64,000 bases of DNA from Chloroflexota bacterium (GTDB lineage: Bacteria; Chloroflexota; Anaerolineae; B4-G1; SLSP01): the NCBI GenBank assembly GCA_036845725.1, contig DAIUDK010000001.1, positions 22,522 through 86,521 on the forward strand. Direction: 5' to 3'. The position numbers were made by a program, and so were the translations under genes. Shown here piece by piece: positions 1-53,562 of this stretch (its first letter is position 1; each line of letters starts with the position of its first letter). The notes below the pieces were generated by a model, which saw only the letters and a list, made by a program, of their open reading frames with translations, did not search any database and was not told where the DNA came from.

Positions 1-459
1 TCGTGGCGCGCCACGATCCAGGGGAACGGTCCCGCAGAGGCTCGCCTGCGCGCGCTGGTGGAGCACTACAACCTGACGGCGCGCGTTACGTTCAGTCTGC
101 CGGTCCCCTCCGTGGATATGCCGGCGTTCTACCAGGGCCTCGACGTGCTGGTACTCCCCTCACGCACTCAGGAGAACTGGACCGAGCAATTTGGGCGCGT
201 GCTGGTGGAGGCGATGGCCTGCGGTGTGCCGGTGGTCGGCTCCGCTGCGGGTGAAATTCCGCACGTTATCGGCGATGCCGGGATCGTCTTCCCCGAAAAT
301 GACGTCCAGGCGCTGCGTGCCGCGCTGGTCCGCTTGATCCACAACCAGGCGTTGCGGCGGGACTTAGGCGCACGAGGCCGCGCGCGTGTGCTGGCAGAGT
401 ACACGCAGCAGCACGTGGCGCAGCAGACCATCCAGGTTTATCAGGAGATGCTCGCATGA
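1..459 (+). CDS. Glycosyltransferase family 4 (GT-B fold), C-terminal part; 5' end lies outside the window
   Basis: The frame is open from nt 1. The protein ends ...VLVEAMACGVPVVGSAAGEIPHVIGDAGIVFPENDVQALRAALVRL..., a typical GT4 C-terminal domain (E-x7-E region). The stop overlaps the start of the next gene (ATGA). Confidence 0.75.
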   Translation, partial: SWRATIQGNGPAEARLRALVEHYNLTARVTFSLPVPSVDMPAFYQGLDVLVLPSRTQENWTEQFGRVLVEAMACGVPVVGSAAGEIPHVIGDAGIVFPENDVQALRAALVRLIHNQALRRDLGARGRARVLAEYTQQHVAQQTIQVYQEMLA

Positions 460-3690: not shown

Positions 3691-3770
3691 AGGTCTCAGC
3701 ACGCACTGGCACTACGCAAGATAGAGCTTGGCACAGATAAATGCGCGACAAAACACGTCGTAAGACTTTT
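3691..3770. repeat. Pair of near-identical 15-bp palindromic sites (agactacaaaggtct / agacttttgtagtct) 50 bp apart in the Wzz to BY-kinase spacer
   Basis: The second site is the reverse complement of the first with one mismatch. Each is an AGACT-N5-AGTCT palindrome. Confidence 0.4.
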
Positions 3771-3794
3771 GTAGTCTGTAACCAAAATTCTTTG

Positions 3795-4448: not shown

Positions 4449-4469
4449 TCGCTCACTCCTTAAAAATAG

Positions 4470-4505
4470 TTGCGTAGTCGTTAATCTGATAGTCGGATAG
4501 TCAGT
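4470..4505 (-). repeat. Three GACTA units (GACTATC...CGACTATC...CGACTAC) upstream of the Wzz SD
   Basis: The minus strand reads cactGACTATCcGACTATCagattaacGACTACgcaactatttttAAGGAGtgagcgagGTG. Confidence 0.35.
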
Positions 4506-8494: not shown

Positions 8495-11032
8495 TCACTG
8501 CCCAACGCTGTAAATCACCACATCTCCACCCTCGTACACCACTGGGAACATCGCGGTAAACTTATCCAGCCCTTCGGCGGGATAGCGCTCGCGTTCGACT
8601 TGGCCGATGTAAATGTAGGCGACGTTGTAGCGCGCTAGAATCGCCTGTGCTTCGGTGGGGTCGAGTGTGGTGAATAGCGTTTCCAGCTCGACCTCGCGAC
8701 GCCCAGGCTCATCGTAGTTGCCGCGCCATTGCCTTTGGTGGCCGCCCCAACCCAACATGGTCGGCAAGCCGGTTAACGCAGAGACGCGCCCCTCGTAGAT
8801 GTAGGCGCGATGTTGGTCGCCCGGCGCTTCGACGATGACCGGCGCGCCCTCCACGTTGGCATTGAGCCACCGAATCGCGGCATAGTCGGTCGGTCGAGAC
8901 GTCGCCAGCCACGCTGCGCCGTCCAGGGTCCACGGTGTGCCGTGTTCGTGTGCCCGCGCCGGAACGGCCAACACGGTGTAGAGCAAGCCCACAGCGATCA
9001 ACAGGCAGGAAAGTCCCACCGCCAGCGCCCGCCAGGGAAAGCACTCTCCGTTCCGGGCTTCATGTGGTTCCAACCAGCGCGCAATCTGCCACGCACCCGC
9101 CAGGCTCCACAAGATCCACGCCTGAAAGTAGAACTTAAAAATTGTGTTCATCCGCGTCATAAACACGTCTTTGAGGTACACGTACTCCGGCGCCAACGTG
9201 AGCAGCAGGCCGATGAGGACGAGGAGGAGGGGGAATTGGGAGTAGGGAGTAGAGAATAGGGAGTAAGGGGGAGGTGGAGATTTTGGATTGTGGATTGTGG
9301 ATTGTGGATCTGGGATTGTGGATTCAGGGCCAGGGGCTACAGACTCAGAACTGACCGCTGACGGCTGATCGCTGACCGCTGATCGCTTCAACAACGCCAA
9401 AACCACCGCCGCGACGCCAAGCGCGAGCGCGAGTCCTACCCAAGGACGCAGCCAGCGCGCAACGATGCCTTCGACGACCATCTCTGGTGCGATGGATAAT
9501 CCCTGGACCGGTTCGCCGCGCCAGACGCTCTGCAGATAAGGATACGCAGCGCCCGCGCCTACCAACAGGCCAAGCAACGCAATGGCGAGCACCAGCCCCA
9601 CGCCGCCGATCAACACCCACTGCCACGGCACACCCGCGTCACGCGCTGCGCCGGCGATCACACCGAGTAGCGGGATCAGCAGCGGGGCAAACATCACCAC
9701 GAACTGCGGCCAGTGCGTAGCGTTGAAGAGATTGGGCAGCACGCCCCCAGCTTGCGAGCGCAGCGCGTACCAGAACGGGAAATACAAAAACACGCTCAAC
9801 ACACCCAGGATAACCCCTTCAGGCAGCGTCCTCCACAGCGCATCAAAAAACCGCGTCCACATATGCCGGAAGGTGGACGCCCCGCCCGCCGAGCGCGCAT
9901 ATCGCGCCAACACGATCCCGCCCACCATCAACACCCAATAGATTGGAAAATCCCACGTGTTGAGAAAACCGAGCGCGCCCAAAGTGAGCGCGTAGCCTGC
10001 CAGCGGTGCAAGCCGCGCCCCCCAACCCTTGCTAAATTCGCCCTCCCGCAACGTCCGGTACAGGTTGAGCGTCAGCGCAACCGCCAGCAGCACAAAAGGC
10101 AGCGCCAAAACGTGCGGGTGCATATCGCCCAGGGTGAAACTGAACGCGGGGAACTCGTCGATGATCTCGATGCGGTCGCCCCAGGGTGCATAGTCGGTGA
10201 GGACGCGCGATCCTTGCCACCACCAGAAGAAGCGCGTGGGAATCCAGGAGAACGGCGGCTGTGGCGTGGTGTTGATATTGCGGATATCCAGCCATGTCCA
10301 AAATTCGGCGGACAGCAATCCACGCGCGTGCAGCACCTCGAGCAAACCGGCAGCGTTGCCGGTCAGCAAGAGCAGCAAAGGCGCGAACAACGCACGCAAC
10401 ACGCCACGTCGTTCCAGCAGATCGTAGACGATGCCGTAAGCGCCCACTGCCGCCAATGCGAACCACCCCGCGCACCCCAGGTTGAAGGCCACCGTCGCCG
10501 GGAGCGCCGACAACCGCGTGAGCATCCCCAACAGGAAATAGCCCAGATAATAATACGAAATTGCGTAGCCGGAAAGCCAGGGATCGTGCGGTGGAACCTG
10601 CGGCGCGCGCAAAACCGCATTGAGGAACGCGATCTCCATCCACTTTTCGCCGCCCGCCGTCTCCAACTGCGGCTGAGAGGCGCGCACCACCGTCCACAAC
10701 AGCAACGCGCCGAAGAAGAGCGCCTCTGTGGTGAGGATGAACACCCGCTGCTCCTGCAACCAGGGACGGATCTCCACCCGGTATCGCCGTAGTGCCCATA
10801 GGCCCACGGCGAATACAAGGCCCGCCGCGACGAGGATGGCGGACGTCGTGTTCTCCCACAAGTGTAGGATACCACCCCACCAAACCACCACGCCGGTCAG
10901 CAACAAGCCCAGCGCCTTTGCCGCCGCATAGCCCCGCGAGCGCAAACGCCGCAACCACACAAACGCTAGTGGCAATCCCGCCAGCGCGAAAACTTGCATC
11001 GTCAGATACCACGTGAGAAACGGTCCAAGCAT
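8495..11032 (-). CDS. DUF2298-family large membrane protein (Chlor_Arch_YYY / TIGR03662-like; predicted GT-C glycosyltransferase)
   Basis: About 845 aa and more than 14 TM helices. Hallmark segment FFWWWQGSRVLTDY...IDEFPAFSFTLGDMHPHVLALPF; C-terminal soluble domain ...TLFTTLDPTEAQAILARYNVAYIYIG. The ATG at 11032 has GGAG 7 nt upstream; the TTG at 11056 has no RBS. Confidence 0.7.
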   Translation of the reverse strand: MLGPFLTWYLTMQVFALAGLPLAFVWLRRLRSRGYAAAKALGLLLTGVVVWWGGILHLWENTTSAILVAAGLVFAVGLWALRRYRVEIRPWLQEQRVFILTTEALFFGALLLWTVVRASQPQLETAGGEKWMEIAFLNAVLRAPQVPPHDPWLSGYAISYYYLGYFLLGMLTRLSALPATVAFNLGCAGWFALAAVGAYGIVYDLLERRGVLRALFAPLLLLLTGNAAGLLEVLHARGLLSAEFWTWLDIRNINTTPQPPFSWIPTRFFWWWQGSRVLTDYAPWGDRIEIIDEFPAFSFTLGDMHPHVLALPFVLLAVALTLNLYRTLREGEFSKGWGARLAPLAGYALTLGALGFLNTWDFPIYWVLMVGGIVLARYARSAGGASTFRHMWTRFFDALWRTLPEGVILGVLSVFLYFPFWYALRSQAGGVLPNLFNATHWPQFVVMFAPLLIPLLGVIAGAARDAGVPWQWVLIGGVGLVLAIALLGLLVGAGAAYPYLQSVWRGEPVQGLSIAPEMVVEGIVARWLRPWVGLALALGVAAVVLALLKRSAVSDQPSAVSSESVAPGPESTIPDPQSTIHNPKSPPPPYSLFSTPYSQFPLLLVLIGLLLTLAPEYVYLKDVFMTRMNTIFKFYFQAWILWSLAGAWQIARWLEPHEARNGECFPWRALAVGLSCLLIAVGLLYTVLAVPARAHEHGTPWTLDGAAWLATSRPTDYAAIRWLNANVEGAPVIVEAPGDQHRAYIYEGRVSALTGLPTMLGWGGHQRQWRGNYDEPGRREVELETLFTTLDPTEAQAILARYNVAYIYIGQVERERYPAEGLDKFTAMFPVVYEGGDVVIYSVGQ

Positions 11033-11099
11033 AAAAACTCCAAAGAGAATGAGCAAATCAGTGAATCAGCAAGACCCCTTACTCCATACTCCTTACTTC

Positions 11100-11807
11100 C
11101 TACTCCACCGTTATCAACGGTGCCAGGTCCCTGTAGCGCGTCTCCCCAATGCCCTCGACTTCCTGCAAGTCTTCGACCCGTTCGAAAGGGCCATGAGCTT
11201 CGCGGTAGGCGATGATGCGCTGCGCCATTGCCGGGCCGATGTGCGGTAGTGTCTCCAATTCGACGGCAGAAGCCGTGTTGATGTTCAACAACGTGGTCGC
11301 GGAAGCTCCCCTCGCAGCCGAAACCACCTCGACTGCCGACTGTGGCGTGGGCGTACAACGAGGCACAATCACGTGTTGGTTGTCCACAAGCGATGCCGCC
11401 AGGTTGACGCTGTACAGGTCGGCATCGGCAGCCGCACCGCCAACAGCGTCCAACGCGTCGGCGAGCAAGCTATCCGCAGGCAGCGTCACAACACCGGGAT
11501 GCGCTACTGCGCCACTGACGTAGACTCGCAACGGCTGTGGCGTCACCGTAGCATCGACGATGCTACTCTCCACACATGCCACAGGAGCACACATCTCCCC
11601 CCAATACGGTGGTGGGGTAAGCACACTACTGGGCTGCGCCTGCTCCCGCATTATGGCTGCAACAATCGCCCCGCCAACAAACAGGCATATGAAAGCAAGG
11701 ACAACACCATAGATGCGATACTGTTTTCGCACCTGAGCCTGCAGCTGCTCACGGATCTCCGCACGAAGTTCATCAACATCAATCAGCGTAGAAGGTACAG
11801 CGTTCAT
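11100..11807 (-). CDS. comEA: ComEA-like competence protein (SLBB domain plus tandem helix-hairpin-helix DNA-binding domain)
   Basis: C-terminus INTASAVELETLPHIGPAMAQRIIAYREAHGPFERVEDLQEVEGIGETRYRDL is a canonical ComEA HhH domain. Has an N-terminal TM anchor. Confidence 0.8.
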   Translation of the reverse strand: MNAVPSTLIDVDELRAEIREQLQAQVRKQYRIYGVVLAFICLFVGGAIVAAIMREQAQPSSVLTPPPYWGEMCAPVACVESSIVDATVTPQPLRVYVSGAVAHPGVVTLPADSLLADALDAVGGAAADADLYSVNLAASLVDNQHVIVPRCTPTPQSAVEVVSAARGASATTLLNINTASAVELETLPHIGPAMAQRIIAYREAHGPFERVEDLQEVEGIGETRYRDLAPLITVE

Positions 11808-20575: not shown

Positions 20576-20598
20576 AAAGTTTAAAGTCTAAAGTCGAT
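20576..20598 (-). repeat. Tandem heptad array CGACTTT-AGACTTT-AAACTTT abutting the start codon of the 7TM sensor gene
   Basis: The minus strand reads gatatCGACTTTAGACTTTAAACTTTttATG. Confidence 0.45.
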
Positions 20599-20668
20599 AT
20601 CAGCAGTCAATTTGGGAGCAAACACGCCCCCCTGTCCCTTGCAGCCAACATTCTGCAACATACACGCT

Positions 20669-21199
20669 TTACCGTATGCGCTTGCGGAAGAAAATCCCCA
20701 CTTCCTGACCCGGCCAATACCCATCCTGATACCCGCAAAAGACGAACCGGTGTTTGAGCGCAAAAGTGATTGCCGGCTGCGCCTTAAGCGGACACTCGAA
20801 AATCAAATGCTCTACGTCTTTGCGTAAAGCCCACTCGATGGCATGGTTCAGCAAATCCGTAGCAACCCCACGTCGGCGAAAGGCCTCATCTACCACCAGA
20901 TCGTTGATACGCGCTTCAGCGCGCTCGGCTGCCACCGACAGCGCCATGTAACCAATCACTTTGCGCCCTTCGACAGCAACCCAAAAGATATCGCTGCGCA
21001 CCCAGCACCGCGCCCGTGCCTCCAGGGTAAGAAAAGAAATGATGCGTTGTTTGCGCGGCAAACGCACTTCACGGAAAAGCGCGCCCCACTCGCCATCGCC
21101 ACGCAGCCCTTCCATCTGCCACGCGGATTCGGTCTCATACGAGCCGTCGATTGCCAAACACGCTTTCCAATCGTCTTCACGAGCCACACGTATACGCAT
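20669..21199 (-). CDS. GNAT family N-acetyltransferase
   Basis: Acetyl-CoA binding motif DLVVDEAFRRRGVATDLL (Q/R-x-x-G-x-G/A). The start ATG at 21199 is preceded by AGGGGGA. Confidence 0.75.
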   Translation of the reverse strand: MRIRVAREDDWKACLAIDGSYETESAWQMEGLRGDGEWGALFREVRLPRKQRIISFLTLEARARCWVRSDIFWVAVEGRKVIGYMALSVAAERAEARINDLVVDEAFRRRGVATDLLNHAIEWALRKDVEHLIFECPLKAQPAITFALKHRFVFCGYQDGYWPGQEVGIFFRKRIR

Positions 21200-21265
21200 A
21201 ATTCCCCCTATATTTAGAACCTGAAGGCACAATATCGTACCCGGCGAGTTTTCGGATGGATTCTC

Positions 21266-21300
21266 AGTCAAAGTCGTTAGTCAATATCCAAAGTCACCCA
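21266..21300 (-). repeat. Heptad array GTGACTT TGGATAT TGACTAA CGACTTT GACTGAG, 70-100 nt upstream of the GNAT gene
   Basis: Same 7-nt GACT periodicity, seen on the minus strand. Confidence 0.35.
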
Positions 21301-23002: not shown

Positions 23003-23037
23003 GATCGTCACCAGTCGTTGGCCGTCAGTCGTTAGTC
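23003..23037 (-). repeat. Five-unit 7-nt periodic GAC array (GACTAAC GACTGAC GGCCAAC GACTGGT GACGATC) immediately 5' of the PNP Shine-Dalgarno
   Basis: The minus strand reads ...GACTAACGACTGACGGCCAACGACTGGTGACGATC-AGGAGGT-tttcg-ATG. Confidence 0.45.
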
Positions 23038-26500: not shown

Positions 26501-26697
26501 AACCACGAATCCCCACGAATATTCACCAATTTTCTCCGTCTGTGCAGATTTGTGATAGTCAAAAGTTCATGAATTGTACACGGATTTGATGGATTTTTGG
26601 ATTTTTAAGGAAAAAATCCGCATTTTGCAGTGTGCATCCGTGTACCAGAACGGCAAAATGATCTCGATTAGTACACTATTCGTGTAGACTCGTGGTT
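26501..26697. repeat. MITE/REP-like intergenic element with 20-bp imperfect terminal inverted repeats (AACCACGAATCCCCACGAAT ... ATTCGTGTAGACTCGTGGTT) and nested internal palindromes
   Basis: About 197 bp with no coding capacity. Nested inverted repeats are gtacacggat/atccgtgtac (26576-85 and 26636-45) and ggattttt/aaaaatcc (26599-26619). A tandem ggattttt repeat is present. Confidence 0.45.
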
Positions 26698-29343: not shown

Positions 29344-29380
29344 GTCAACGGATTGAACGGATTTAACGGATGAAACAGAT

Positions 29381-32198: not shown

Positions 32199-33302
32199 TC
32201 AGGATGCGGTTATACTAGCATCATCTTCAGAATCGGGGAATACACCGCGGATCCCAGGCTGATACGTCTCATAAACCAGTTCACCGAGGATATTCGCCAC
32301 GAAACGCACAACGGAAATGGTACGACTGTAGGGCATACGCATCGGTCCGACGACGCCAAGCGCGCCGGTGGCGTAGTTTGTCACGCCGTAACGCGCCAGT
32401 ACAATGCTACATGTGCGCAGTTCATCCCAACGCCCCTCACCGCCAATAAGCACGCGCACGCTACCGACGCCCACCGCCGGGGTCAAGGTCTCAGCCAACA
32501 CCGCCTGGAGCAGGCTGCGCTCTTCCAACACCCTCACCACGGACGTGGAAGCGGCGTCGCCTTCGGTGAATTCCGGCTCTTGCAGCAGGTCGGAGAGACC
32601 GTGCTGGTAGATTTCGTCCGAGGGCGTGCCCTCGGCATTGTACATAATCGAAACGACCAACCGGGCGATGTCGGCCTCCAGCGTGGGCAGCTCACCTAGC
32701 CGCGCTTCGATAGCCGCGACGCGCAAACCGGCGAAAATCTGGTTGAGGCGGTCGGCGACGTCGCGCAGGGTCGTTTGCGTCAACGGTTCGGAGAGCGCCA
32801 GCATTTGCTGTTCGATGGTGCCGCCCTGCAACACCAGGATCAGCAGCACCGCCCGCCCGTGGGTGAGGACGAGTTCCAGGTGTTTGTACACCGGCTCCAT
32901 CGTGCGCGGCGCGGTCACGACCGAGGCTACGCCCGACGAGCGCGCCAGCACCGAAGCCGCCAGCGGCAACCACGCCTCGATGTGGTCGCGAGCCTGATGA
33001 AACTGGTGCGCGATGCGGCGCTGTTCCGGGACCGGCAGCGATTGCTCTTCCATCAAGCGCGCCACGAAGTAACGGAACCCGGCCTCGGTGGGTACCCGTC
33101 CCGCCGACGTGTGCGGCTGCGCCAGATAGCCGAGGTCTTCAAGGGCCGCCATCTCGTTGCGCACCGTCGCCGGGCTGAAGTCGAGCCGGTACTTGTCCAC
33201 CAGGGTGCGCGAAGCCACCGGGATCGTCGATTCGACGTGTTCCCGGACGATGAGCTTGAGCAGCAAGCCCTGACGTGAGGTTAGTTCTGGCGATTCGGTC
33301 AT
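32199..33302 (-). CDS. hrcA: Heat-inducible transcription repressor HrcA
   Basis: N-terminal winged helix ...LLKLIVREHVESTIPVASRTLVDKYRLDFSPATVRNEMAALEDLGYL. A CIRCE operator lies about 200 nt upstream. Confidence 0.9.
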   Translation of the reverse strand: MTESPELTSRQGLLLKLIVREHVESTIPVASRTLVDKYRLDFSPATVRNEMAALEDLGYLAQPHTSAGRVPTEAGFRYFVARLMEEQSLPVPEQRRIAHQFHQARDHIEAWLPLAASVLARSSGVASVVTAPRTMEPVYKHLELVLTHGRAVLLILVLQGGTIEQQMLALSEPLTQTTLRDVADRLNQIFAGLRVAAIEARLGELPTLEADIARLVVSIMYNAEGTPSDEIYQHGLSDLLQEPEFTEGDAASTSVVRVLEERSLLQAVLAETLTPAVGVGSVRVLIGGEGRWDELRTCSIVLARYGVTNYATGALGVVGPMRMPYSRTISVVRFVANILGELVYETYQPGIRGVFPDSEDDASITAS

Positions 33303-33309
33303 CGGTTCA

Positions 33310-33330
33310 TTAGTCCAAAGTCCTTAGTCC
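33310..33330 (-). repeat. Tandem heptad array GGACTAA-GGACTTT-GGACTAA abutting the hrcA start codon (no SD present)
   Basis: The minus strand reads ctgaGGACTAAGGACTTTGGACTAAtgaaccgATG. Confidence 0.5.
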
Positions 33331-33502
33331 TCAGAACCTATCCAAAAATTATCGCGGTTTCACACTGTCGTCAGTATGGGCGGCTAAAGCCGCTTTTCCC
33401 CCGCGCCTTTAGGCGCAAAATACTGCGTCCGGTGAATTTTCGGATAGATTCTAAGTCCGTCGTCGCAATTCGGACATTCAAAACTGTGAACATGGCATCA
33501 AA

Positions 33503-33529
33503 TTAGCACTCGGATATAGAGAGTGCTAA
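33503..33529. promoter_or_regulatory. CIRCE operator (HrcA binding site), perfect consensus TTAGCACTC-N9-GAGTGCTAA
   Basis: Sequence is ttagcactc-ggatataga-gagtgctaa. It lies about 200 nt 5' of hrcA on the minus strand, inside the hrcA/kdgK divergent intergenic region. Confidence 0.85.
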
Positions 33530-33649
33530 GCACAACACCTAAATGATACCATGAAGAAGGCGCATGTCAATCTGACAGATTTGGCATCTTCCCTTTTTGA
33601 GTACAATTAGGAGTAGGGTACGCTCTACAACGGATCAGGAGGTCTTTTT

Positions 33650-34693: not shown

Positions 34694-34766
34694 CCACGAA
34701 TCTTCACGAATTGACACTAATTTTGCTTTCTATTCGTGAAGATTCGCGTCAATTCGTGGTTAATCT
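34694..34766. repeat. Short member of the same element family: AACCACGAAT...ATTCGTGGTT termini with a perfect 15-bp inner stem
   Basis: aaccacgaat-cttcacgaat-TGACAC-loop-ATTCGTGAAGATTCG-cgtca-ATTCGTGGTT. The inner stem cgaatcttcacgaat/attcgtgaagattcg is perfect. Lies between kdgK and eda. Confidence 0.5.
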
Positions 34767-34781
34767 TGATAGGAGAGTATT

Positions 34782-35456
34782 ATGGCACGCTTTGATCGAA
34801 TGACGGTTTTGAACAAGATTATGGAATTGGGCCTCATCCCAATATTTTATCACGCGGATGTGGAAGTGGCCGCGAAGATTGTGGCGGCGTGCGCGGCGGG
34901 CGGGGCGACGGTGGTGGAGTTCACCAACCGGGGCGATTTTGCACCGCAGGTGTTCCTCGAATTGAGCAAGCATTTCGCCAAGTCCGATCCCAACATCATC
35001 CTCGGCGCCGGCTCAATTGTGGACGCGCCTACGGCGGCGCTCTACATCGCCTACGGCGCGAACTTCATCGTCGGCCCGAACCTCAACCCCGAAGTGGCGC
35101 GGCTGTGCAATCGCCACAAGATTCCTTATTCGCCGGGCTGCGGCAGCGCCACGGAGATCGGCGAGGCGGAGGAACTCGGCGTGGAAATCGTCAAGATCTT
35201 CCCCAGCAAGGGGGTAGGCGGGCCGGATTTCGTCAAGGCGGTGTTGGGTCCGTGCCCGTGGACGCGCATTATGCCCACCAGCGGCCCGGACGCCACACAG
35301 GAGAGCATCCATACCTGGTTCAAAGCGGGCGTGGCCTGCGTGGGGCTTGGCTCGCAGCTCATCACCAAGCAAATCGTCGCGTCGGGCGACTTCGAGGGGC
35401 TGGCGCAGAAGACGGCGCAGATTTTGCAGTGGATCCGCGAGGCGCGCGGGAAGTAG
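34782..35456 (+). CDS. eda: KDPG / KHG aldolase (2-dehydro-3-deoxy-phosphogluconate aldolase)
   Basis: ...IPIFYHADVEVAAKIVAACAAGGATVVEFTNRG...VGPNLNPEV...KIFPS... match the Eda (beta/alpha)8 class I aldolase family, including the Schiff-base Lys region. SD TAGGAGAG. Confidence 0.85.
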   Translation: MARFDRMTVLNKIMELGLIPIFYHADVEVAAKIVAACAAGGATVVEFTNRGDFAPQVFLELSKHFAKSDPNIILGAGSIVDAPTAALYIAYGANFIVGPNLNPEVARLCNRHKIPYSPGCGSATEIGEAEELGVEIVKIFPSKGVGGPDFVKAVLGPCPWTRIMPTSGPDATQESIHTWFKAGVACVGLGSQLITKQIVASGDFEGLAQKTAQILQWIREARGK

Positions 35457-41795: not shown

Positions 41796-42441
41796 TCTCA
41801 ATCTTCATATTTGTTGCCGCCACACACACCGCAACAGGACGAAAAGTCAACCGGTGCAGTGGGCAGACACCCAGGCGGACCAACGCCTCCCGATGCTGTT
41901 GCGTGCCGTAACCCTTGTGTTGCGCGAAGCCGTAGCCGGGGAAATCAATCTCCGCTACGTCCACCATCCAGCGATCCCGTGCCACTTTCGCGATGATGCT
42001 GGCTGCCGCCACCGACAGCGAACGCGCGTCGGCGTAGGGGAACGCGTCCTGCGGCAGATTCACACCGGGCAAGCGCAGCGCGTCAATCACCAGGGCTTCT
42101 GGTGAGACAGACAATGCCGCCAGCGCGCGCTGCATCGCTAATCGCGTCGCCGGGACGATGCCGAGCGCGTCGATTTCCTGCTGCTCGCCGCGCCCTACCC
42201 CTACGGCCAACGCCACGTCGAGGATGCGCGTTACCAATCGCTGACGGACCACGGATGACAACTGCTTGGAATCGCGCACACCGGCCAAAGCCGCACACAC
42301 GCCATCTCCACAAGGCAGAATCACCGCCGCGGCGACCACCGGCCCGGCCCACGCCCCGCGCCCGGCCTCATCCAGTCCGGCTACGCGTTGCATCCCGCGC
42401 GCCCAAAATCGCTCTTCCGCTTCCAGTGTAGGTAAATTCAT
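41770..42441 (-). CDS. rnhB: Ribonuclease HII
   Basis: ...[21 protein letters not shown]... with the DEAGRG catalytic motif; DSKQLS; ...HKGYG... C-terminal region. Confidence 0.85.
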
Positions 42442-42465
42442 AAGTCAAAAGCCAAAAGTCCAACG
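42442..42465 (-). repeat. Tandem heptad array TTGGACT-TTTGGCT-TTTGACT abutting the rnhB start codon
   Basis: The minus strand reads ggcgTTGGACTTTTGGCTTTTGACTtATG. Confidence 0.45.
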
Positions 42466-42527
42466 CCGAACACCGATTCGCTGATTCGCTTATTCTGCCA
42501 CACTCTGCCCGATTGCCAAATGAATAT

Positions 42528-42556
42528 TTGCTTTTTCGCCCATGTCGTTTTATACT
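42528..42556 (+). promoter_or_regulatory. Candidate promoter for the TPR gene at 42621
   Basis: The -35 is TTGCTT, followed by a 17-nt spacer and -10 TATACT. Confidence 0.35.
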
Positions 42557-42620: not shown

Positions 42621-43946
42621 ATGGGGTTGCTCGACGATAAACGCAGTGCAAAGCAACAACCAGATGAGGAACTGTGGGAAGGTCTGTTCGGCGAAGAAGA
42701 ACTCGAAGCGCCATCTGAGCCAGCCGACGCTGCATCCGCTAAAAAAAAGGAACGGGGCAGCAAGCGCCAAAAACGCGAGAAAGCACCGCCAAAACGCAAG
42801 GCCCCTGTCACAAAGGCCCCAAAGCCGAAACGCACACGTGCCAAAGGCAAAGGGCTTACACCTGGACAACTGCTCATCCTGCTGCTGTTAGGGATAGGCA
42901 TTATTGTGGCCTACCTGCTACTTGCGTCGATGATTAAAGGGACGCTGTCGACAAATCCTCCCCCAAGTGGCGACGTCATTCCAACAGCCCTTCCCGGTAC
43001 GGAGGCCACCGCGCAGACATCGTCGAGACCAATCCCACCTACCCCCACCCCGCTCCCAACTCGCTCTCTGGCAGACATTGCTACGCTTACGCCAACGCCA
43101 CTTCCACTGGTGACAACGCGATTTGACCAAAACGTCATCCTCAACCCTGATGATATTGAACTACGCTTGCAGCGTGGCGCGGAATACTTAAGCCTGGGAG
43201 CCTACGAAGCAGCGCTGGCCGACTTCGAACACGCGCAAACCCTCGACGAGAAACACGCCGAAACCTATGTCGGTATTGGCCAGGCGCAGTACCATCTACT
43301 CAACTGGCCGGCGGCTGAGAGCGCTTTTCTCACCGCGATCTCTTTCAAAGAGAACCTGCCTGACCCCTATTTCGGCATCGGCATGATTTACTACCTGCAA
43401 GGGCGCTATCCCGAAGCAGCCAAGGAATTCGACCGGGCAGCAGAGAAAAACCCCGAATTTGCCGAGGCCGAAGCCTGGTTAGCCATCGCCACTTCTCTGG
43501 CCGGCGATTCGGGAGAGGCTATGGCCGCGGCGGATCGGGCTTTTGGCCTCGCGCAGGAAAGCGCCATCATTCACATCGCACGCTCCTGGGCCTATCGCGT
43601 ACAAAGTCCCCCCGACATTGACGCGGCCCAAGGCGATCTCCTTCAGGCACAAAAACTGGCCCCGTATAGCCTGGAATTGCTCATCGCCCTGGCACAGTTC
43701 TATACCGATTACCGACCTGAACGTATAGCTGAAGCGGAGCAGCTAGGGCACTACGCCATTCAATGGGCGAAAACCGATCTGGAACGCGCGCGCGCTTTGC
43801 ACATTCTGGGGCACGTCTACCTGGCGCAGGACCGCAAGGAAGAGGCTAAAAAGGTGCTGGCCGAAGCCGCCGCTCTGACGACTTACGAAGGCCAGGTGTT
43901 ATTGAGTGGCGTGGTTGAGGATTTGGATCGCGCGCTGGCGCCGTGA
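42621..43946 (+). CDS. TPR-repeat protein with a Lys-rich N-terminal region and one TM helix
   Basis: KR-rich N-terminus (KKKERGSKRQKREKAPPKRKAPV...), a TM helix (LLILLLLGIGIIVAYLLLA), a PT linker and then TPR repeats. SD GGAGGTAAG. Confidence 0.7.
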   Translation: MGLLDDKRSAKQQPDEELWEGLFGEEELEAPSEPADAASAKKKERGSKRQKREKAPPKRKAPVTKAPKPKRTRAKGKGLTPGQLLILLLLGIGIIVAYLLLASMIKGTLSTNPPPSGDVIPTALPGTEATAQTSSRPIPPTPTPLPTRSLADIATLTPTPLPLVTTRFDQNVILNPDDIELRLQRGAEYLSLGAYEAALADFEHAQTLDEKHAETYVGIGQAQYHLLNWPAAESAFLTAISFKENLPDPYFGIGMIYYLQGRYPEAAKEFDRAAEKNPEFAEAEAWLAIATSLAGDSGEAMAAADRAFGLAQESAIIHIARSWAYRVQSPPDIDAAQGDLLQAQKLAPYSLELLIALAQFYTDYRPERIAEAEQLGHYAIQWAKTDLERARALHILGHVYLAQDRKEEAKKVLAEAAALTTYEGQVLLSGVVEDLDRALAP

Positions 43947-53492: not shown

Positions 53493-53562
53493 GGGATCCT
53501 CCAGAAAAGTGATGGGTAATGGGTAATGAGTTGGATAATGGGTCTTGAGTTTTGGGTTTTGC

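Follow-up and report, generated by a model that had tools for sequence, protein, structure and literature searches.

Tandem repeats with a GACT core form 5' leaders beside start codons in a clade of Anaerolineae

GACT arrays in the window

The window, a stretch of 64,000 nucleotides from the metagenome-assembled genome (MAG) of an uncultured, Anaerolineae or Thermoflexales-like member of the Chloroflexota with ~60% GC and strong usage of Shine-Dalgarno (SD) sequences, carries short tandem repeats with the core GACT directly upstream of several minus-strand genes, among them hrcA, rnhB and the gene of a membrane protein. A search with the pattern GACTN3GACTN3GACT, allowing up to one mismatch, finds three triple heptads in the window compared to 0.19 expected, a number reached in none of 100 shuffles. 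All three are intergenic, lie on the minus strand and end at the ATG of the three genes named above. Pairs of GACT spaced by 7 nt occur six times on the minus strand, compared to ~0.6 expected from the motif density, and perfect or near-perfect GACT triples in the window peak at a period of 7. The initial annotation had quoted array sequences for these genes and for PNP, all of which are present on the minus strand at the coordinates listed here, and the arrays that it mentioned for the Wzz (4476-4502) and GNAT genes are real as well. Its gene names hrcA, rnhB, PNP, GNAT, Wzz and ParA-like kinase agree with Pfam matches and gene context, whereas the proposed 7TM sensor, here called the membrane protein, has no Pfam match.

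The hrcA gene (32199-33302, minus strand; start codon 33300-33302) encodes a protein with the Pfam domain HrcA and a conserved N-terminus (MTESPELT) and belongs to an hrcA-grpE-dnaJ-prmA operon. Its leader array, GGACTAA GGACTTT GGACTAA(T) (33309-33332, minus strand), ends 6 to 9 nt before the ATG with no SD sequence, and the full end of the leader as read from the sequence is CTGA GGACTAA GGACTTT GGACTAA TGAACCG ATG (33303-33335). The rnhB array TTGGACT TTTGGCT TTTGACT T (42442-42465, minus strand) abuts the ATG (42439-42441), again with no SD sequence. The membrane-protein leader, likewise SD-less, reads (GACTGCT GATATC) GACTTTA GACTTTA AACTTTT T ATG (20576-20608, minus strand), its core in another phase being CGACTTT AGACTTT AAACTTT TT ATG (20576-20598). 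The PNP array GACTAAC GACTGAC GGCCAAC GACTGGT GACGATC (23003-23037, minus strand) continues straight into AGGAGG; both the array and this SD sequence had been reported correctly, whereas the description as five GAC heptads applies to four of the five units, the third being GGCCAAC. At the Wzz gene, GACTATCC GACTATCA GATTAAC GACTACG CAACTAT is followed by TTTTAAGGAG and a GTG start codon (4465-4502, minus strand). The array upstream of the GNAT gene, GACTTTG GATATT GACTAAC GACTTT GACT (21266-21295, minus strand), is followed by a decayed copy of a hairpin element described below (~21200-21264) and by the GNAT ATG at 21199.

Distribution, period and orientation in the clade

The comparison set comprises 80 hrcA loci from GTDB species genomes with a total of 1.24 Mb. 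Eleven of these loci (L004 to L012, L019 and L045), with HrcA proteins 83 to 95% identical, form a close clade, which together with the window amounts to 240 kb. The window MAG and its 11 close relatives contain 22 arrays of 3 to 12 units each, which constitute a clade- and strand-specific family of GACT-core repeats forming 5' leaders beside start codons. Perfect GACT triples across all loci number 12 at period 7, 31 at period 8 and 0 at periods 5, 6, 9 and 10, nearly all of them in the close clade; orthologous arrays are non-independent observations. The units follow the pattern GACT(T/A)(T/A)N (GACTWWN) or GACTA(Y)(Y)(Y) (GACTAYCY), with both kinds mixed in some arrays. The 7-nt periodicity proposed initially is thus not strict: orthologous sites in relatives carry 8-nt GACT-core arrays, and single arrays can combine units of both lengths.

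All 22 arrays run in the sense of the downstream gene, the mRNA reading GACU. The presence of arrays in front of divergent genes on one contig (L007 and L008) indicates that their polarity follows the gene and not replication. Their spacing from the start codon is similarly constrained, with 20 of the 22 arrays ending within 45 nt of it or running into an SD sequence, many of them without a gap; this proximity has a P of ~1e-18 against intergenic strand-sites and of 3e-7 after collapse to ~10 ortholog groups. The description of the arrays as non-random, strand specific and located directly 5' of start codons is thus confirmed. Within 60 nt upstream of starts, the ratio of GACT to AGTC is 89:21 in the clade compared to 80:82 in distant relatives (1 Mb). 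The most strand-asymmetric 4-mers upstream of starts are GGAG, GAGG and AGGA, in the clade and in distant relatives alike, which indicates ordinary SD usage and, presumably, a canonical anti-SD sequence.

At hrcA, rnhB and the membrane-protein gene, arrays stand where an SD sequence would be expected; the absence of an SD at these three genes and the position of the array in its place had both been recognized initially. PNP, Wzz and the genes designated MPFLI, MARFD and MIxIING keep an SD sequence, with the array flush against it. The accompanying statement on strong SDs at most other genes holds approximately: in the clade, the SD reaches at least 5 nt in 48% and at least 4 nt in 74% of the genes with no array, figures based on an SD-favoring choice of start codons and on gene calls from a crude heuristic of longest open reading frame (ORF) and GC content at third codon positions. 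In-frame stop codons shortly upstream of the ATGs rule out an N-terminal extension of hrcA and rnhB, and their N-termini are kept in relatives.

Orthologous hrcA arrays of 3 to 5 units are found in L004, L006, L007, L008, L012 and a sister species (P0001). Orthologous rnhB arrays comprise 3 to 12 units with period 7 or 8 and are present in L005, L008, L011, L012, L019 and L045. PNP shows orthologous arrays in L009 and L019 and AACTGAN-type arrays in the leader of L011. Scanning metagenomes for the rnhB promoter and N-terminus gave only a contig already represented by L019.

Promoters and 5'-UTR location

The hrcA promoter TTGACA-16-(TG)TATCAT (33543-33570, minus strand), with 11 of 12 matches, is followed by a perfect CIRCE operator (TTAGCACTC-N9-GAGTGCTAA; 33503-33529, minus strand) upstream of the array. 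The same promoter stands upstream of CIRCE in many relatives, and relatives also show the succession promoter, CIRCE, array, ATG. The rnhB promoter TTGGCA-16-(TG)CAGAAT, or TTGGCA-16-TGgCAGAAT with its spacer base (42492-42519, minus strand), is shared by the window and five relatives. Among them, its -10 element lies 58 to 209 nt from the ATG, and this difference is made up entirely of (GCGAATN)n and, after it, (GACT...)n, both of them tandem arrays. The conserved promoters upstream, together with CIRCE at hrcA, place the hrcA and rnhB arrays in the 5' untranslated region (UTR), in support of a location considered in the initial annotation. No sigma-70 -35/-10 match lies inside the arrays, and a reading of the arrays as promoters or as marks of leaderless genes is rejected on this ground.

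The two-array layout of the rnhB leaders begins with the G-richer (GCGAATN)n directly after the promoter, in 2.6 to 14 units, and ends with the GACT array. In the window, the promoter-proximal repeat is (AGCGAATC)x2.6 (42475-42495, minus strand); relatives carry 4 to 14 units of GCGAATG or GGCGAATT, located at 4205-4301 in L011, 187-226 in L005, 3394-3445 in L045 and 1-30 in L012. The L011 leader contains ~14 x 7 nt and 12 x 8 nt of repeats. On the opposite strand, a promoter-like site TTGCTT-17-TATACT (~42523-42555, plus strand) precedes a divergent TPR gene (42621-43946) and overlaps a conserved 12-codon ORF (MNICFFAHVVLY). Its counterpart in L008 (~285-322, minus strand) has a GACT array upstream, the sole array not obviously in a UTR.

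RNA structure and the hairpin element

The rnhB leaders of L011, L045 and the window show z scores of +0.24, +2.69 and +0.65 relative to dinucleotide shuffles and hence no excess folding. The energy required to open the region from -20 to +12 is 8.4 kcal/mol at array-bearing starts compared to 13.5 kcal/mol at all other predicted starts (p = 6e-6). Written as five-copy RNA, GACT-core units read (GACUUUC)5 and (GACUAUCC)5. At the gathering score, Rfam 15 has no matches in the whole window, and a permissive scan of the hrcA leader gives only matches at chance level; a tRNA search of the window found none.

The strong fold of the hrcA leader of the window (z = -6.3) derives from an inserted element and not from the array, and the candidate reading of this leader as an RNA thermometer or structured leader was rejected, as the insertion is absent in relatives. 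The element (33333-33452, minus strand) lies between CIRCE and the array, is ~120 nt long and has terminal inverted repeats of ~20 nt (AGAATCTATCCGAAAATT / AATTTTTGGATAGGTTCT). It resembles a miniature inverted-repeat transposable element (MITE) and is missing from the orthologous hrcA leaders of relatives; a homologous element occurs at another locus in L015 (5645-5830). The element contains conserved internal hairpins (GCGCCTAAAGGCGC and GCGGCTTTAGCCGC) and has no Rfam match. Both copies in the window, the one at hrcA and the decayed one by the GNAT gene, adjoin GACT arrays.

Turnover and retention

Orthologous sites differ in unit, period and copy number but agree in the GACT core, in polarity and in position. 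The rnhB gene is preceded by 3 heptads in the window, by 6 to 8 heptads in L045 and by 10 to 12 octamers in L005 and L011. Near-perfect units are confined to the long 8-mer arrays of the latter two, and the units of short arrays differ at positions 5 to 7. Variation between units falls mostly on these positions, with a minority fraction of 0.19 to 0.40 compared to 0.05 to 0.07 in the core, a count biased by the way in which the arrays were ascertained.

Within species, the leaders are stable. Three independent assemblies of the strain of the window agree in every base of the hrcA leader, and so do seven assemblies of the sister species (P0001), drawn from at least three studies, whose leader reads CGACTCT CGACTAT TGACTAT CGACTTT GGACTAA TAAACCG ATG. 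No copy-number variation is seen among these seven and three assemblies, which represent consensus sequences in which minor variants are invisible and long arrays are possibly mis-sized.

Retention differs between genes. Arrays are kept at every rnhB ortholog and nearly every hrcA ortholog, in total at 13 of 14 orthologs of these SD-less genes, compared to 9 of 25 orthologs of the SD-bearing PNP, MPFLI, MARFD and MIxIING genes (Fisher p = 7e-4, for observations that are not phylogenetically independent). In distant relatives with no arrays, hrcA is often preceded by AGGAG-like sequences that resemble an SD.

Relation to known repeat systems

The arrays are not without precedent. Direct repeats of the heptamer TAACTGA, in 2 to 6 or more copies, have been described in marine Beggiatoaceae, some Cyanobacteria and Bacteroidetes (MacGregor 2015, PMC4679880). 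These repeats occur in forward orientation, mostly a few nucleotides from the start codon and over the expected ribosome-binding site, and most of the genes concerned have no SD sequence; they contain one G per unit, show no predicted structure and no functional theme, and include "split" sets of related 7-mers (PMC4679880). S1, cold-shock proteins (Csp) and CsrA have been proposed as their readers (PMC4679880). The GACT arrays are alike in consisting of tandem 7-nt repeats that are intergenic, in sense orientation and start proximal, with one G per unit, no predicted structure and no functional theme. They differ in a unit made of a core and three or four variable bases, with 7 and 8 nt interchanging, in contrast to the one fixed heptamer of the Beggiatoaceae, and in their host, a member of the Chloroflexota with ~60% GC and strong SD usage in which about two thirds of the array-bearing ortholog groups keep the SD. 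Units resembling TAACTGA (AACTGAT AACTGAC ... AACTGAA) appear only in the PNP leader of L011. The arrays thus share the position and orientation of the TAACTGA class and not its unit sequence.

A broader group is formed by long simple sequence repeats (SSRs) with units of 5 to 11 nt, in which heptamers are reported to be dominant and over-represented in noncoding DNA (Mrazek 2007). The GACT arrays are likewise longer than chance, mostly noncoding and variable between genomes. G-rich heptamers, GGGAATC in Xanthomonas and GGGGA(C/T)T of the STRR family in Nostoc, are concentrated in the 50 bp upstream of ORFs, with a strand preference that makes the mRNA strand G poor (Rehm 2015, PMC4692102). 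Their position is shared between related species while length and sequence vary, and they are mostly transcribed (PMC4692102). The Nostoc repeat (GGGGACT)n contains the GACT core, but the sense strand upstream of Nostoc ORFs is AGTCCCC, the opposite polarity. In addition, the G-rich heptamers can form G-quadruplexes and prefer four units, whereas the GACT arrays with one G per unit cannot form such structures. The original STRR units are said to be CCCCAGT, TTGGTCA and CAACAGT.

The only experimentally dissected case of a pyrimidine-rich heptamer array in a transcribed 5' UTR, a layout shared by the GACT arrays, is (ATCTTTC)n of hmw1A/hmw2A in Haemophilus influenzae, which acts posttranscriptionally by pairing with a G-rich arm to give an RNase III substrate (Rapun-Araiz 2025, PMC12721329). 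The hmw repeat has perfect units in at least 11 copies and is phase variable within populations (PMC12721329). GACT units, in contrast, are imperfect, occur in 3 to 12 copies and show no within-species variation and no pairing partner. An hmw-like pairing between the two rnhB arrays was considered and is not supported, as the leaders show no folding in excess of shuffles. Multiple short cores with a regular pitch in leaders are also a feature of HutP (UAG-N4)3, with a pitch of 7 nt, TRAP (GAG/UAG-N2-3)11 and CsrA (GGA in loops), which differ in that they act on terminator or antiterminator structures or by SD occlusion in defined operons. In the array leaders, no terminator, antiterminator, conserved triplet of the HutP, TRAP or CsrA type or operon theme was found. 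The GACT arrays do not qualify as CsrA sites, G-quadruplex repeats, hmw-type hairpins or phase-variable loci. The searched literature holds no description of GACT-type leader arrays in Chloroflexota.

Other repeat families and neighboring elements

Tandem repeats in intergenic regions of Anaerolineae were called with Tandem Repeats Finder (TRF). Across all 80 loci, 7-nt units make up the largest intergenic class (58 arrays per Mb in distant relatives), and the GACT arrays are one family within this general repeat class, in which context matters. Other 7- to 9-nt arrays abutting an SD or start codon in Anaerolineae include (CCGTCTA)11, (AACTTTC)6, (CAATGAR)9-13, (ACGCATT)5-9 and (CTGACTA)5. A general rule that all start-proximal 7- to 9-nt arrays are G poor in the sense strand was considered and dropped as a mere trend (p = 0.15).

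In viral contigs, five GACT cores at a pitch of 7 or of 8 nt occur at at least 120 loci each. High-GC viral contigs (L127, L099 and L214) show the same layout of array, SD and ATG. A phage family with a GC content of ~0.45 (IMG/VR L087, L093, L103, L105, L108, L110, L113 and L124) carries (GACTTTC)n/(GACTATC)n arrays of 5 to 12 units that follow the stop codon of a conserved gene and precede a terminator made of a hairpin and a T-run, a 3'-UTR context. The presence of an array by itself consequently does not imply a role at a start codon.

The AAAGTC/TAGTC palindromes in the spacer between the Wzz and BY-kinase genes, which the initial annotation had linked to the heptads, are a separate element. 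These two 15-nt palindromes, AGACTACAAAAGTCT (3762-3776) and AGACCTTTGTAGTCT (3692-3706) on the minus strand, lie ~70 nt apart and are mutual inverted copies; the pair may represent an operator pair or the arms of a hairpin. A (GGAGTAN)4 family with an SD-like GGAG in each unit, TGGAGTA GGAAGTA AGGAGTA TGGAGTA AGGGG (11080-11107, minus strand), is located upstream of a DUF2298 gene. It recurs in L081 (6603-6631 and 13782-13810), whose HrcA is only 47% identical, and there forms a hairpin with the inverse (CCCTACT)n. Within the 853-aa minus-strand DUF2298 ORF, (GGGAGTA)4, (GATTGTG)6.6 and (CTGACCG)5.3 follow one another on the plus strand (9238-9390) and constitute an in-frame insertion of ~51 codons between positions 421 and 443 of the Pfam model. 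A near-identical leader of ~50 nt (TAATTTTGCTTTCTATTCGTGAAGATTCGCGTCAATTCGTGGTT...) lies at ~34712-34781 (plus strand) upstream of the gene at 34782-35456 and is also present in L005 and L012 (~2716-2785). It precedes MARFD in the window and L005 and MPFLI in L012, as would be expected of a leader or promoter cassette that is dispersed or mobile; GATTCGYG repeats related to it occur commonly. Further short arrays of the window (29347-29371, 26582-26606 and 53512-53561) are (AACGGATTG)2.8, (GGATTTTT)2.8, (ATGGGTA)4.9 and (TGGGTTT)3.3, and the 9-mers AACGGATT and AATCCGTT are found again in L005 and L011, upstream of the MIxIING gene.

Origin and function of the arrays

The reading tentatively preferred here, which is possible but falls short of probable, is that the arrays are slippage-born repeats kept as G-poor, structure-free leaders for the loading of the 30S subunit, with or without an SD sequence. 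The arrays would be 7- and 8-nt short tandem repeats making up part or all of the 5' leader in a subset of genes of one clade of Anaerolineae. Replication slippage would create and remodel them over species-level time, and they would be retained only in the orientation that gives GACU(W/Y)n RNA. With one G per unit and no self-complementarity, such a transcript cannot fold, and an array flush against the SD or AUG would keep the initiation region single stranded. The unfolded array may offer the 30S subunit a loading place, probably through the OB-fold protein bS1 as the putative reader, supplementing the SD where one is present and, at the SD-less hrcA, rnhB and membrane-protein genes, acting as its substitute.

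In favor of this reading stand the enrichment, the uniform sense orientation, the start-proximal position and the 5'-UTR location of the arrays, their lack of structure, their retention at SD-less genes, the SD-like sequences at hrcA in array-free distant relatives, the apparently canonical anti-SD and the succession of array, SD and ATG in high-GC viral contigs. Several observations weigh against a loading function. Arrays show no overall enrichment at SD-less genes (~3 of 10 ortholog groups), and in L005 hrcA lacks an SD although its leader array is decayed. The opening energy of 8.4 kcal/mol compares to 9.4 kcal/mol in orthologous array-free leaders, a marginal difference (p = 0.07), and any AT-rich leader may serve as well as an array. 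Array-free orthologous leaders open nearly as easily, which makes the arrays compatible with an open initiation region but not uniquely so. The G-poor sense strand across start-proximal 7- to 9-nt arrays is a non-significant trend (35 vs 23, p = 0.15), and the array of L008 at 322-350 lies upstream of the promoter-like site described above. A role as unstructured spacer furthermore leaves the fixed GACT core with variable positions 5 to 7 unexplained, as far as this ascertainment-biased count can be taken at face value.

The near-invariant core is the main argument for a sequence-specific single-stranded RNA-binding protein that would read one GACU every 7 to 8 nt, either a cold-shock/OB-fold protein or a HutP- or TRAP-like ring or filament, and raise or lower the translation of a regulon. 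This idea, put forward in the initial annotation, seems on balance unlikely, with a real chance of being right. The core (minority fraction 0.05 to 0.07, compared to 0.19 to 0.40 at positions 5 to 7) is common to 7- and 8-nt units and to arrays at unrelated genes, all five units of the P0001 hrcA leader differ and each keeps GACT, and the strand-specific GACT excess is limited to the clade. HutP provides a precedent for the reading of triplets at a 7-nt pitch. CspB of Bacillus subtilis binds T-rich single strands with one protein per heptamer (reviewed in PMC4679880). The downstream genes, however, are unrelated (heat-shock repressor, RNase HII, nucleoside phosphorylase, Wzz, GNAT and membrane proteins), the presence of an array at a given gene flips between close relatives, which is odd for a regulon, and 3 to 12 copies at one gene are not what a defined oligomer needs. 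The conservation of the core is also subject to the bias already mentioned. The arrays are one among many 7- to 9-nt repeat families in intergenic regions of Anaerolineae, which weakens the case for a dedicated GACU reader; unit families such as CAATGAR, ACGCATT, CCGTCTA, AACTTTC and GGAGTAN occupy the same position, and separate readers for all of them are unlikely. In a related and bolder proposal, GACU repeats would be a clade-specific, SD-free ribosome-recruitment signal in which one OB-fold module (bS1 or Csp-like) per unit hands the mRNA to the 30S subunit, with TAACTGA of the Beggiatoaceae and the other unit families of Anaerolineae as convergent versions; this is a speculative and rather unlikely extension. 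The abundance of the general class speaks at the same time for neutral slippage products tolerated in noncoding space, with an orientation bias due to selection against the opposite orientation or to transcription-coupled mutational asymmetry, an account that appears rather doubtful and yet a serious contender. In many prokaryotes, heptamers are reported to outnumber all other classes of long SSRs, with polymerase slippage as the proposed origin (Mrazek 2007), and 7-nt arrays are the commonest intergenic tandem repeats in all 80 loci. Species differ in unit, period and copy number, SD-bearing genes gain and lose arrays, an in-frame insertion in a coding region consists of heptads with other units, and GACTTTC/GACTATC arrays occur in the 3' UTRs of an unrelated phage family. 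Neutrality is difficult to reconcile with the 22:0 orientation, the placement flush against SD or ATG, the retention at all rnhB and nearly all hrcA orthologs and the recurrence of the same core in independent arrays. Heterogeneous units and the identity across seven and three assemblies moreover indicate that no active slippage takes place and that the arrays must have been preserved.

The strict polarity relative to the gene points to RNA and stands against action at the level of DNA, whether as sites of a regulator or roadblock or as phase-variable contingency loci. Heptamer repeats are reported to control the ctxAB and SARP-type promoters, the copy number of (ATCTTTC)n upstream of hmw1A tunes expression in H. 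influenzae (PMC12721329), and the copy number of GACT units differs between species. A pitch of 7 to 8 bp, however, sets successive sites on different faces of the helix, and both the promoters and the HrcA operator are upstream of the arrays. Copy-number polymorphism is absent from the seven assemblies of at least three studies and the three of the strain of the window, imperfect units suppress slippage, and there is no hmw-like hairpin partner, which leaves action on DNA very unlikely. Least probable of all are CsrA/RsmA-type GGA sites or weak SD substitutes pairing with 16S rRNA, a reading largely refuted by the sequence. All hrcA units read GGACU, and the unit nearest to the AUG is GGACU at ~-14 to -10 in five of six hrcA orthologs. 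Elsewhere, C, T or A precedes GACT, namely in the rnhB, membrane-protein, PNP and Wzz arrays and in all 8-mer arrays, so that the repeat itself does not include GGA; this triplet alone would form 3 bp with the anti-SD, and no hairpin presents the motif, as the leaders show no folding in excess of shuffles. The initial statement that the motif is not the CsrA consensus is accordingly sound, with GGA only in hrcA units and no hairpin. A 7-nt complementarity of GACUACC to 16S positions 797 to 803, which fall in the base-paired helix h24, was treated as coincidence, such a match being expected for about one in ten 7-mers.

Significance

Start-proximal heptamer repeats have long been noted in Proteobacteria, Cyanobacteria and Bacteroidetes, and the GACT arrays add a fourth phylum. 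The clade provides a comparative series in which promoter and start codon are fixed while the leader between them is rebuilt from varied GACT units, periods and copy numbers. Arrays persist where an SD sequence is absent and are dispensable where one is present, and the hrcA and rnhB leaders are suited to testing repeats as an SD-independent initiation signal. Gene callers that expect an SD sequence may misplace the starts of array-bearing genes in MAGs of Chloroflexota.

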